From NCBI GenBank assembly GCA_951406725.2, contig OX597832.1, forward strand, positions 34,038,001-34,102,000: a stretch of 64,000 nucleotides of DNA. The letters run 5' to 3'. Under the pieces are notes generated by a model. It was not told where the DNA came from. It worked only from the letters and a program-made list of their open reading frames with translations, and ran no database searches. Both the position numbers and the translations under genes were made by a program. Below, piece by piece: positions 2,331 to 59,765 of this stretch. The stretch comes from Octopus vulgaris (Eukaryota). The first letter of the stretch is position 1, and each line of letters begins with the position of its first letter.

Positions 2331-2651
2331 ATGGATATACGTGTGTATGTGTGTATGTGTATAAATATATACTTGTGTCTGACATTTCTGTCCGTCTGTA
2401 TGTATATGCACGAACATGAACCTACTTGTCTAAGTTTTAATCTTCCTTTCTCCTACTTTCTTTTTCCTGTGTCAGCGAAAGCTGATCAGGTCATTTGACC
2501 TCAACTGGAACGCAAGATTTCCACGTTCATATTTGAATTTATTTTTTTTTTGTGATTCTATATCATTTGCTTTCATTGATTCCCTAACTTGATGCGCATG
2601 TAACAACTAGCCAGCCGACCCGAAAATTCTCTGTTGAGACTTCTTTATCAA

Positions 2652-2703
2652 TGAACCTGAAGAGACCCAGGCTGATATGTCGAAACGTGTTGCACCTAAT
2701 AAA
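2652..2703 (+). ncRNA. Hammerhead ribozyme-like motif (type I, minimal, degenerate)
   Basis: CTGAAGA (2657) - GAC/GTC stem II - GAAAC-GT-GTT, followed by AATAAA (2698). Stem I pairing is poor. Confidence 0.55.
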
Positions 2704-2726
2704 AGACTTATACGAAATCCATCTCC

Positions 2727-3316
2727 TATGCTCACCACCTCCAAAAAAACCTCATGTCCAACACTCAGCAGGCAAGGAGATGCTCACAGACTTGTGGGAC
2801 AAGCGTGGAGTAGTGATGATGGATTTTCTGGCAAAGGGCACCACAATTAACGGGGCATATTATGCCTCGCTACTGCAGAAATTGCGGGACGCCATCATAG
2901 CAGAAGGGCGTGGCATACTCACCAGTGATGTTCACCTCCTCAAAGACAACGCCCCAGTTCACAATGCGCATGTTTCCCAGATGAAAGCACATTCCTGCAG
3001 CTATGAAATACTTCTCCATCCCCCTTACTCTCCCGATCTCACACCATCTGACTTCCACTTCTTTCCAGCCATGAAGTCTTTCTTGGAGGGGAAGCACTTT
3101 TCGGATGATGAACTTATTTCCGAGGTAAAGTCTTGGCTCCAGACGCAACCTACTGACTTCTATAAACGAGATCTTCACAGCTGCATAAAATGATGGGAGA
3201 ATTACCTCACCCGTGGTGGTGGCCATATAGGGAAGGACTAATAATTACGCCAAGCTTCGTTCATCCCATTCCTTGAGAAATGGGTCAGGGGAAATCTTGA
3301 ATGAACATCCCTCGTA
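2727..3316 (+). mobile_element. Mariner transposase 3' fragment with right TIR (non-functional)
   Basis: Translation SAGKEMLT..WD..G..GTTING.YY..LL..L...DNAPVH...HPPYSPDLTPSDFHFF is the mariner catalytic region. It ends in TIR-like ...CATCCCTCGTA. Confidence 0.92.
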
Positions 3317-39959: not shown

Positions 39960-40150
39960 GTTAATCCAAACATGAAAACACAACAACGCGAGGACGTGGA
40001 ACAAGTATAGTGTTATTGGACGCTCAGGAAAGGAAGGAAAGAAGGAGGACTCAATGTTTCGAGCGGAGCTCTTCGTCAGAAACAGGAAATGGAAAGATCC
40101 AAGGAAGGGAAGACGGAGGGGAAAAAATCGCCAACGATACACACATGGTC
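39960..40150 (-). mobile_element. Short HHR-bearing element, family B
   Basis: Reverse complement of 46945-47140; GTTT-CTGACGA-A-GAGC-TCC-GCTC-GAAAC-ATT. Confidence 0.8.
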
Positions 40151-55760: not shown

Positions 55761-55986
55761 ACTCTTTTACCTGTTTCAGTCATTTGACAGCGGCCATGCT
55801 GGAGCACCGCTTTTAGTAGAGAAAATCGACCCCACGACTTATTCTTTGTAAGCCTAGAACTTATTCTATCGAATTATTTTGCCGAACTGCTCAGTTACGG
55901 GGACATAAACATAACACCATCGGTTGTCAAGCGATGTTGGGGGAACAAACACAGACACACAAACATATACACACCCATATATAAAA

Positions 55987-56017
<31 letters not shown>

Positions 56018-56180
56018 CGACAGGCTTCTTTCAGTTCCCGTCTACCAAATCCACTCTCAAGGCTTTGGTCTGCCCGAGGCTATAGTAGAAGACACTTGCC
56101 CAAGGTGACACGCATTGAGACTGAATCCGGAACCATCTGGTTGGAAAGCAAACTACTTGCCACACAGCCACCTATGCGCC
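55761..56180 (-). mobile_element. tRNA-derived SINE family 1, near full length
   Basis: Reverse complement of 57229-57618, including the internal (TA)n. Confidence 0.9.
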
Positions 56181-57228
56181 GATATATATATATACACACA
56201 AGAACGCAAAACATCCGAACAACTAAATGATACAAAAAGGACAACAATACATCCAGATAGACGATACAAAAAAACAAGGACGTGCATTCGAAGCTTTTTA
56301 TCCTCAGTCAAGAACCGGATCATCCTCGCAATTTCGGCTGATTAATCTTGAGATTGCTCCAATCTGACCAGCCCCTACGAAAAACTAAGCTAAGAGCGTT
56401 AGATTCCTTGGAAAAATAGCATCGAATGTATACGAAAACAAGGACGGAAAAACAGACGATGTTACACGAATATAAGTACAAAAATACAATAATAATAATA
56501 ATAATAATAATAACAGAACATAACGTGTGTGTATGTATGTATGTAAGTATGTATGTACAGTTTCCGTTAAGCAAGTCCATTCAGAAGGCTTTAGCTATCG
56601 GGAGGCTTTAGTAGAACATATTTCTGCAAGGGTCCACGCTGAGGTGTTTAATCCGAGTGTGGTTGGGTAACGAAATTCTTAATCACTTAGCAATATGACG
56701 ACGTTTGTCTATGTATGTGACTACGGATGTACATATGTATGTGTGTGCATGTGAGTGTGTGTGTGTGTGCATGTTAGTGTGTGTGTGCGTGCGTGTATGC
56801 AGTTGAGTGTGTGTGCATGTGTGTATTTGTGTATGCACGCATATGTGGTGGGTATATAAATAAAGTGGTTATGTGTATAGACAGACAGATCGCTAGAGAG
56901 AAAGTGAGAGAGAGAAATTCTAGCTAATGGGAAAATCAGGTTTTGTGTATTGATTGGAAAATCAACAAATGACTAAACTTGGGATAATTATGATTTTTAA
57001 AGAGTATATATGTGCACGAGCGTATGTGTATTAATGAGTGTATACATACATACACACACATACACAGTAACGCACACACACTCTCACGCGTACACACATA
57101 TGCACACGCACATACACACACGTACACAAACAAGCACACGCACACGCACACACACGCACAAACACACGCACATATATGTGTGTGTGTGCGCGCACGTACA
57201 CATAAGTACATATAAACTATTACTTATA

Positions 57229-57618
57229 GGCGCAGGAGTGGCTGTGTGGTATGTAGCTTGCTTTATGGCCACATGGTTCCGGGTTCAGGCCCACTGCGTA
57301 GCACCTTGGGCGAGTGTCTTCTACTATAGCCTCGGACCAACCAAAGCCTTGTGAGTGGATTTGGTAGACGGAAGCTGAAAGAAGATCGTCGTATATATGT
57401 GTATATATGCATGTGTGTATGTTTGTCTGTGTTTGTCTCCTCTGTCGTCGCTTGACAACCGATGCTGGTGGATTTACGTCCCCGTAACATAGCTGTTCGG
57501 CAAAAGATACCGATAGAATAAGTACTAGGCTTACAAAGAATAAATCCGGGGTCGATTTGTTCGACTAAAGGTGGCGTTCCGGCATGGCCACAGTCAAATG
57601 ACTGAAAGAAATAAGAGA
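57229..57618 (+). mobile_element. tRNA-derived SINE family 1 (CORE-like), full length
   Basis: GGCGCAGGAGTGGCTGTGTGG A-box, GGTTCAG.CCC B-box, ACCTTGGGC.AGTGTCTT core, internal microsatellite, and tail CAAATGACTGAAA. About 10 copies or fragments in the window. Confidence 0.9.
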
Positions 57619-58242: not shown

Positions 58243-58837
58243 GTGAGTGTGTTTGTTAGTGTGCGTGATTATGCGTGTATATTCGTATGTGCACGTGCGT
58301 GTGTGTATATCTAATTTACATGTGCTTCTTTACCAGAGAACTTGCTTAACACCCGGGAGAAATCCTGCCTGGTTCGAATGCAGTGAACATGTCAAGTACA
58401 CTACACACACGTTTTACCACATGACCAAGTAGCCTTCCTGACGATCAACCAACGACTTCTAACAATCAATAATTGCAATATATAACTGCGTGCGTGATTT
58501 TTTTGGCTTTAAATGGGGAAACTATTTTCTTTGTCTGCAGAATACAGCGCTGCTGTATTAGTCACCCGAACACGTCATTCTCCGTTCTTCCGGTGGCAAT
58601 GTACAGCTTTTTTTACTCTCCGTACACTCTTCTTCAGTGGCCGAGGTTGTAATTAATGTGACATGAAAACACGGGTTGAAAATGTGAGTTAAAATGATAT
58701 ATTTGATATTAATTTAAAGAAGCATCTACCTGTACATAGAGATATTATATGTGTGTGTGTGTTTGTGCATGTATATATATATATATATAAATAAATGAAA
58801 GAATGGAGTTGAACGACGAATTAACAAAATTCCTTTA

Positions 58838-58919
58838 TTCTCGACATATGTTTCGAAGGTGCATATTCGTAATTTCGAAGGAATAAGGGGTGCATTATGC
58901 CGCCTTCTCATCAGGAAAA
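58838..58919 (-). ncRNA. Type I hammerhead ribozyme (left arm)
   Basis: Exact reverse complement of 59162-59243. Confidence 0.85.
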
Positions 58920-59161
58920 ACAAGGAACTTATGTCAGCATCAAGATGAACAAAAAATTTTAGATGACTGCCCACACGGAGCCCATAGCGATAATGAGTGT
59001 TTCTTTAAAATATTCCGTTATAAGCAGTGACGTCAAAAACGGTTTTTGACGTCACTGCTTATAACGGAATATTTTAAAGAAACACTCATTATCGCTATGG
59101 GCTCCGTGTGGGCAGTCATCTAAAATTTTTGTTCATCTTGATGCTGACATAAGTTCCTTGT

Positions 59162-59247
59162 TTTTCCTGATGAGAAGGCGGCATAATGCACCCCTTATTC
59201 CTTCGAAATTACGAATATGCACCTTCGAAACATATGTCGAGAATAAA
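59162..59247 (+). ncRNA. Type I hammerhead ribozyme (right arm)
   Basis: TTTTC-CTGATGA-GAAGG.GCATA...TATGC.CCTTC-GAAAC-ATAT-GTC-GAGAA. Canonical core, GUC cleavage triplet at 59236-59238, palindromic stem III ACATATGT, AATAAA at 59242. Confidence 0.85.
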
Positions 59248-59545
59248 GGAATTTTGTTAATTCGTCGTTCAACTCCATTCTTTCATTTATTTGTATTAAA
59301 AAAACACACAAATTTCCACACGAAAGCACGTGATTTCTGCCCTTGGCATGTAGCTTCAACCGTGTTTTTCTGACGTGAATTTGCTACCCAGATATCGGTT
59401 AACCGAATTATCCATAATAAGATAATTCATTCAACTACTCAAATATATATATATAATGTGTGTGTGTGTGTTGATATCTGTCTGAGTACATACGTATAGA
59501 CATCCAATCAAACATTGACATATGTTTGTGTGTCTGTATATATAT

Positions 59546-59589
<44 letters not shown>

Positions 59590-59592
<3 letters not shown>

Positions 59593-59765
59593 GGAGAGCT
59601 TACGAAAAAAACAAAAGACGAAGACAGGTAGTGTTGAAAACAAACAGATGTATTAGTATAACACTCGGGAGTAGAAAAAATCTTTTACGTTTCGAGCTCT
59701 TCTACAGAAAGGGACACAGAAAAAGACAAGGAGAGAAAAAATGTGCGTAGTGGCTAACGATCTAT
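59590..59765 (-). mobile_element. Short HHR-bearing element, family A
   Basis: Minus strand CCTTT-CTGTAGA-A-GAGCTC-GAAAC-GTA-AAAGA (stem II loop deleted). Confidence 0.75.

Follow-up and report, generated by a model that had tools for sequence, protein, structure and literature searches.

The stretch of DNA analyzed here comprises 64,000 nucleotides of the Octopus vulgaris genome (hereafter the window; contig OX597832.1, positions 34,038,001 to 34,102,000) and carries a near-perfect palindrome with a hammerhead ribozyme motif on each strand. An earlier note on this sequence viewed the palindrome as a young, symmetric unit of 504 bp and proposed it as a candidate for a viroid-like or retrozyme-like class of foldback elements. 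This raises the question of whether the palindrome spreads as a unit of its own, or whether it is one product of another type of mobile element.

Recomputation from the sequence returned the coordinates first described, with a left arm of 252 nt (58789-59040) and a right arm of 251 nt (59042-59292) separated by a single unpaired G (59041). There is one indel, located in a T-run, and there are no arm-to-arm substitutions. Thus, the near-perfect palindrome with its 1-nt loop stands as proposed, but the symmetry does not extend to the whole unit, because a 147-nt tail present on one side only carries the insertion on the right to ~59442. The sequence at 59293-59442 corresponds to the 5′ UTR of the element described below, which precedes the ATG in full-length copies, and we therefore take the full insertion to be 58789-~59442, with (TA)n on both flanks. 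This copy has no protein-coding capacity. Its features are as follows, where PLE denotes a Penelope-like element and signed positions are those of the family reference.

58772..58788, no strand: (TA)n target, left flank (from sequence)
58789..59044, minus strand: left arm, a 5′-truncated PLE 3′ end/pLTR, reference -256 to ~0, with its end at site 0
58830..58927, minus strand: type I hammerhead of the left arm, core from 58914 and cleavage predicted after 58843
58992..59035, minus strand: predicted outward pLTR promoter of the left arm, with CRE 59035-59028, TATA-like 59022-59017, and Inr-like 58997-58992
59040..59044, no strand: head-to-head junction, left arm ~5 nt longer than right, 2-nt TT microhomology
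59043..59292, plus strand: right arm, a 5′-truncated PLE 3′ end/pLTR, reference -251 to 0
59047..59090, plus strand: predicted pLTR promoter of the right arm, with CRE 59047-59054, TATA-like 59060-59065, and Inr-like 59085-59090
59154..59251, plus strand: type I hammerhead of the right arm, long stem II, palindromic stem III, predicted cut after 59238
59293..59442, plus strand: tail of 147-150 nt, the 5′ UTR of the element, with a putative intron donor mutated at 59392
59444..59455, no strand: (TA)n target, right flank (from sequence)

At the center, C59040, which is not the family allele, forms a pair with G59042. Among the short-read contig pieces listed, neither an empty site nor a target-site duplication (TSD) was found for the 58789-~59442 insertion, and the (TA)n flanks would hide any TSD.

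Sequence comparisons identify both arms as 3′ ends (pLTRs) of a PLE present in many copies. An exact 22-mer near the end of the arm occurs 2,256 times in the genome. When the genome was searched with one arm, the best 40 of 2,589 candidates were scored and gave 43 matches, 41 of them near full-arm, with 96-100% identity; among these, the right arm is 96-98% identical to 39 other full-arm matches. Copies extend upstream of the arm by variable lengths, and one long copy (L032) has the order tail, ATG, an open stretch of 833 aa that bears both RT and nuclease motifs, 3′ UTR, arm, and (TA)n. Motifs of RT and of a C-terminal IY..YIG nuclease are present in family copies L031-L034 and not in the window fragment, and no uninterrupted full ORF was found among the long copies examined. 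Pfam and PDB sequence searches with the family protein returned nothing significant, and the RT/nuclease assignment is based on motifs, 11 aligned homologues, and inspection by eye against published Hydra proteins.

In full-length copies, tandem pLTRs lie upstream and inverted truncated partners are present, which is the layout given in the legend to Fig. 2 of PMC8557442. These partners, and the longer copies that have an ORF of the RT plus GIY-YIG type, uphold the connection to the inverted pLTRs of PLEs that was previously drawn from background knowledge. An older subfamily forms a tandem and inverted array with a period of ~3.2-3.7 kb (L163-L165; G000:C20:23328000-23357700), in which a hammerhead regex found no match.

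The family most closely resembles the Hydra clade, as defined in section 11 of PMC8557442, a clade that includes Hydra-1_Obim. At E<=0.001, 6,945 relatives of the family protein were retrieved, and the 11 homologues that were aligned show Hydra signatures. Of these, the family shares DKT, RW at the RWK position, a nuclease without CCHH, and CxxC and CxH flanking E and N. As described for the clade, the RT is followed by a GIY-YIG-type nuclease, a hammerhead is located near the 3′ end, and the target is (TA)n; (TA)3 or more lies beyond 49/63 site-0 ends and 51/54 tail ends in the census presented below. The RT motifs also agree by eye with those of published Hydra proteins. In contrast to the clade description, the family element is ~3.5 kb rather than <3 kb, has RWL instead of RWK, and lacks the CxCx5C cysteines. 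This linker before the nuclease is present in 11/11 aligned homologues, whereas the window family has Asn-rich sequence in its place; in 10/12 distinct translations (the other two are out of frame), the 45 residues preceding IY contain no Cys. The Asn-rich, cysteine-free linker between RT and nuclease was seen in L031-L036, L043, L047, and L171. That the linker cysteines have been lost while (TA)n targeting persists challenges the linker-targeting hypothesis.

Given these motifs, we regard the family as an EN+ PLE that is Hydra-like and closest to the Hydra clade, and not as a full member, because the linker cysteines are missing. It also appears to be distinct from Hydra-1_Obim, since the hammerhead and N-terminus differ by eye from the published ribozyme and protein. 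A literature search of sources other than subscription papers and Repbase recovered no account of the window family or of the one-end-per-arm rule described below. The family is probably new, that is, Hydra-like but undescribed.

The sequence at 59293-59442 also occurs upstream of the ATG in L032 and in most of L133-L162. At 147 nt, this tail far exceeds the 30-40 nt given for PLE tails (PMC8557442). It includes part of a putative 5′-UTR intron of ~67 nt (window 59387-59442; L133-L162), with a GT donor at +100 and a CAG acceptor at +164. Among 30 loci, the donor is present in 21/21 regex-matched copies and the acceptor likewise in 21/21, although the regex itself required the CAG. The tail end falls within this putative intron, and the donor is mutated in the window copy. 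Site 0 was also considered as a splice donor and was rejected, because its GT is not kept in other subfamilies.

Both arms have a canonical hammerhead core, as claimed, but stem II encloses ~50 nt, and an Rfam search found no hammerhead match at the gathering score nor at E<=1. On the plus strand, stem I is formed by 59154-59166 and 59239-59251, with CUGAUGA at 59167-59173, GAAA at 59227, ACATATGT at 59230, GUC ending at 59238, and AATAAA at 59242. The AATAAA is thus located just after the cut site, where it had been reported, but it is part of the 3′ strand of stem I. In each arm, stem I is 13 nt long and broken by a 2x2 loop, and stem III is self-complementary. This stem III is of the dimer type suggested earlier, with a cofold energy of -8.4 kcal/mol; both a palindromic stem III and dependence on dimers have been described for the hammerheads of PLEs (PMC4209133). 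With thousands of copies in the genome, a dimer partner could come from any of them. Rfam matches to miRNA and generic hairpin models were below gathering scores and were rejected as generic hairpins.

The core is intact in 90/109 family arms, drawn from subfamilies 74-100% identical to the reference. In the window copy, two private changes present in both arms weaken stem II, and the constrained ribozyme fold has an energy of -19.1 kcal/mol versus -29.0 for a sibling, the spans being slightly different. Read-through RNA is predicted to fold into a rod comprising the whole palindrome at -447 kcal/mol, versus about -19 for the constrained ribozyme, which agrees with the idea that such a rod would mask the ribozyme. 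We conclude that the hammerheads, CRE sites, and AATAAA motifs are passengers of the pLTR.

The CRE sites that flank the center (TGACGTCA at 59028 and 59047) were noted from the start, and they prove to be a family feature, one per arm. The CRE, TATA, and Inr-like motifs are kept across subfamilies, with the Inr-like A at -206 (A59088 in the right arm), 28 nt after TATA. The 5′ ends of family copies cluster at -210 to -190 (17/74 versus 6.4 if uniform), adjoining this A, and the predicted right-arm promoter coincides with this 5′-truncation hotspot. The window arms reach beyond -206, and the predicted promoter is complete in each of them. Divergent transcription from both arms, as judged from these conserved motifs, is plausible. 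No RNA data set was listed as a holder of the sequence, and a short-read run presumed to be RNA contains family sequence and does not contain the unique left flank of the window locus; neither result has a bearing on that locus. Ribozyme cleavage was considered as the setter of 5′ ends and was rejected, as 0/132 arms end within 2 nt of the cut and 94 span it.

Head-to-head copies are the norm in this family. Our census covers 74 sites, obtained from the first 100 of the 2,256 22-mer matches (chr C1, 156 Mb), with a match just upstream of site 0 required, and it comprises 50 head-to-head pairs, 23 solo copies, and one mixed site. Thirty-five of the pairs overlap and are palindromic. Within the same first 100 matches, all on chr C1, neighbors no more than 5 kb apart are divergent in 25 cases, tandem in 1, and convergent in 0. 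Other head-to-head junctions of the family are present in short-read contigs of three DNA runs, some of them in two runs.

The ends of these pairs follow a simple rule. In 48/50 pairs, a site-0 end on one arm is matched by a +147 end on its partner; the number is 49 if L104 is counted, whose tail is split in two alignments and which proved on inspection to be a site-0/tail pair. Tail/tail pairs number 0 among the 50, and one pair (L097) is site-0/site-0. The excess of site-0/tail pairs has a binomial p~1e-12 against p=0.5, and 14 of the 48 do not overlap. Five apparent tail/tail pairs, from 100 of 496 matches, were rejected, because four are site-0/tail and one is site-0/site-0.

There are at least two exceptions, L097 and L216, which end at site 0 on both sides. 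L216 (327-554; G000:C1:188053600-188054500) has symmetric 78-nt arms, both ending near site 0 and joined via a central (AT)n. L097 (153-849; G000:C1:137074900-137076200) is a 211/211 perfect palindrome with (TA)n and an 11-nt duplication within its left, tail-side arm. Both arms of L097 share a ribozyme mutation that breaks the core.

Very probably, the window locus is a 5′-truncated head-to-head insertion of the multi-copy Hydra-like PLE in (TA)n, in which RT was likely primed by both cut ends at two fixed sites within the RNA, after which the cDNAs were joined end to end. The features observed directly are the family identity, the RT/GIY-YIG-type ORF in longer copies, the (TA)n flanks, the site-0/+147 ends, the 2-nt microhomology, and the frequency of near-symmetric pairs. 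From these we infer all the steps of the mechanism, and fold-back synthesis predicts the same end product. In this scheme, an RT-nuclease, probably dimeric, would cut both strands of (TA)n, and uncleaved pLTR-5′UTR RNA would be primed at site 0 by one 3′ end and at +147 by the other. If the second cDNA stops on meeting the first, a non-overlapping pair would result. Alternatively, the second cDNA may displace the first and recopy the same template, which would yield an overlapping pair and hence a palindrome. Both cDNAs would stop at a similar place, which is in many cases the predicted transcription start near -206 and in the window copy lies near -251/-256, and their ends would then anneal via 2-nt microhomology, followed by fill-in. 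Tight palindromes might later be partly homogenized by template switching.

Several of these steps have a counterpart in the PAc element (Poseidon, Anolis), for which PMC11167929 reports in vitro cutting at AT-rich sites with extension of both strands, initiation of RT at a pair of internal sites that delimit the tail, a predicted dimer, and use of uncleaved RNA, with ribozyme cleavage dispensable. In that report, however, the start site is apparently the same between strands, whereas the paired arms of the window family use different sites in 48/50 pairs. In addition, the PAc hammerhead overlaps the ORF start, whereas that of the window family is upstream of site 0.

The junctions bear on how the arms were joined. 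At BLAST-level resolution, 24/45 have an overlap of 1-20 nt, 2 are blunt, and 19 have 1-29 extra nt. Near-symmetric 5′ ends (within 21 nt, arms >=60 nt) occur in 11/23 census pairs versus 3.7 by permutation (p=1e-4), which extrapolates to ~200 near-symmetric palindromes genome-wide. Zero-loop centers fit two equal cDNA ends joined by 2-nt microhomology.

The main rival is fold-back synthesis, wherein the site-0-primed cDNA snaps back, copies itself, and joins the tail-primed cDNA, or the RNA primes itself. Such a process would explain the excess of symmetric junctions, and self-priming has been proposed for rotifer Penelopes (PMC3846280). Shared rare variants are also found 23 times in 37 pairs with loops <=30 nt and 0 times in the other 14 pairs; four sparse old subfamilies account for ~11 of the 23, however, and a rank test on these variants is not significant (p=0.55). 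L097, whose (TA)n and 11-nt duplication lie inside an arm, has the appearance of a fold-back copy whose synthesis ran on into the flank. Nevertheless, the 14 non-overlapping pairs keep the same end rule without forming a palindrome, and equal cDNA ends that anneal via a 2-nt palindrome explain zero-loop centers better than a hairpin does. We therefore consider fold-back synthesis unlikely and continue to favor priming from both cut ends.

The recurrence of palindrome centers addresses the original proposal, in which the locus would be a foldback element akin to viroids or retrozymes, bearing a ribozyme on either strand and replicating as one unit. By pattern search, tight palindromes numbered 28 at one register and 10 at a second. 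The perfect rod, the two hammerhead cores, the outward promoter motifs, and the identical centers that recur at another register are in line with such an element. The window copy, which has no ORF, shares with hammerhead viroids a type I hammerhead and a ~250-nt unit. However, the center of the window palindrome occurs once in the 2.8-Gb genome. Two groups of four palindromes do share a center, but their members are 4-10% apart (one pair 1-2%), which indicates that identical centers arise repeatedly. Because these same-center palindromes derive mostly from different subfamilies, whose identity to the reference is 87-96%, and all of them obey the PLE end rule, the foldback does not spread as a unit.

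The architecture is likewise at odds with a viroid-like unit, given that the one-sided tail is a PLE 5′ UTR. Non-LTR retrozymes also share the type I hammerhead and the ~250-nt unit with the window copy, which has no ORF, but those of animals are described as head-to-tail tandem arrays that give circles, in contrast to the single inverted pair with PLE termini seen here (PMC7229834; bioRxiv 10.64898/2026.07.22.740005). Excision of a circle by ribozymes needs two in tandem, and because each strand of the window palindrome has a single sense hammerhead, ribozyme-driven circle excision is impossible. We therefore consider a separate foldback class highly improbable, and a PLE insertion primed from both cut ends remains the preferred reading.

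A further concern is that the palindrome was created by the assembly, either as a foldback chimera or through polishing that equalized the arms. No short-read contig piece among those listed spans the junction, so that the center is known from the assembly. Moreover, the arms have zero substitutions between them versus ~2.6% in other pairs. However, the tail is present on the right arm only, the layout agrees with 48/50 census pairs, the junction microhomology is typical of the family, and similar junctions exist in short-read contigs. Other tight palindromes in the same assembly also keep arm differences of up to 4%. For these reasons an artifact seems improbable, although polishing may have affected the identity of the arms alone.

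The description of the palindrome as young finds no support in the pattern of variants. Both arms share private variants, namely a G>C, a G deletion, and a G lost in an A/T run, that are absent from nearly all siblings, and the tail of the window copy has two further rare changes. A search for a source copy with these private variants gave 4 and 6 matches for two variant patterns, with only the two window arms in common. Typical pairs differ by ~2-3% from arm to arm. Arm divergence is 1.0% where loops are <=3 nt (14 pairs) versus 2.1-2.8% otherwise (37 pairs; p=0.009 without the window locus), in a comparison restricted to pairs whose arms stay within -330 and overlap by at least 55 nt. Tight palindromes show low arm divergence although their tails are no poorer in rare variants, which stand at 1.7% in pairs with loops <=3 nt versus 0.7-1.5% in others. 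In a first test of private variants, arm divergence rose with spacer length (rho 0.43, p=0.013), and spacer classes were not separated for shared variants (rho -0.03).

Template switching is a known mechanism by which arms are homogenized. The low arm divergence, together with the core-breaking mutation shared by both arms of L097 and the (TA)n copied into one of them, suggests homogenization of this kind rather than youth, and an effect of consensus calling on arm identity is possible as well. In addition, the window locus was chosen for its perfection. Tight palindromes may be older than the identity of their arms implies.

The architecture as such, with an inverted pLTR and a one-sided tail, is already described for PLEs (PMC8557442, PMC2377424). 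The Penelopes of Drosophila virilis and Adineta vaga (PMC2377424, PMC3846280) likewise have head-to-head pLTRs, junction palindromes, a tail on one pLTR, microhomology joins, and Asn-rich inserts between RT and EN. They differ in that their tail is 31-34 nt, versus 147 nt in the window family, and the D. virilis element is described as TATA-less, whereas a CRE-TATA-Inr-like promoter is predicted for the window family. In the window family, by comparison with these elements, the end rule and symmetry have been counted over 50 pairs.

The single locus is therefore ordinary, one of many truncated PLE insertions, and it is the family-level rule that carries the interest. The origin of inverted pLTRs, one-sided tails, and microsatellite targeting in PLEs is stated to be unresolved in PMC8557442. 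The end rule (48/50), together with the hotspot of symmetric junctions, leads to strand-specific predictions that apply to the in vitro system already in use. More tentatively, we speculate that the family practices an asymmetric form of twin priming, a proposal that might well be correct but to which we would not yet commit. A PLE dimer would load one RNA and use one start site per target strand, and strand displacement with run-off at the pLTR transcription start would mass-produce near-perfect palindromes (about 200 or more, by extrapolation). Targeting to (TA)n would proceed without the proposed cysteine linker, and copies that keep both promoters could yield divergent ribozyme RNAs or long dsRNA.

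The window holds other repeats and hammerhead-like sequences. A second repeat of very high copy number (59591-59765; contig depth summing to as much as ~1.4 million in run X1) lies between (TA)n tracts and adjoins the insertion, and its minus strand carries, by eye, a damaged motif resembling a minimal hammerhead. Inverted copies of a common interspersed repeat of ~200 nt (55985-56184 and 57225-57424) are 82% identical and 1 kb apart, and both come after a TA-rich tract. A regex search for hammerhead-like motifs returned 6 in the 64-kb window, 4 of them outside the palindrome; these are cores of other families at 2657, 26756, and 47010 (plus strand) and at 40079 (minus strand). The core at 2657 adjoins an ORF (2588-3190), a fragment that we take to resemble a Tc1/mariner transposase. 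Finally, two loci, L167 (minus strand, 3920) and L168 (plus strand, 6005), represent a different hammerhead family that has the same ACATATGT stem III and a long stem II, with another stem I.
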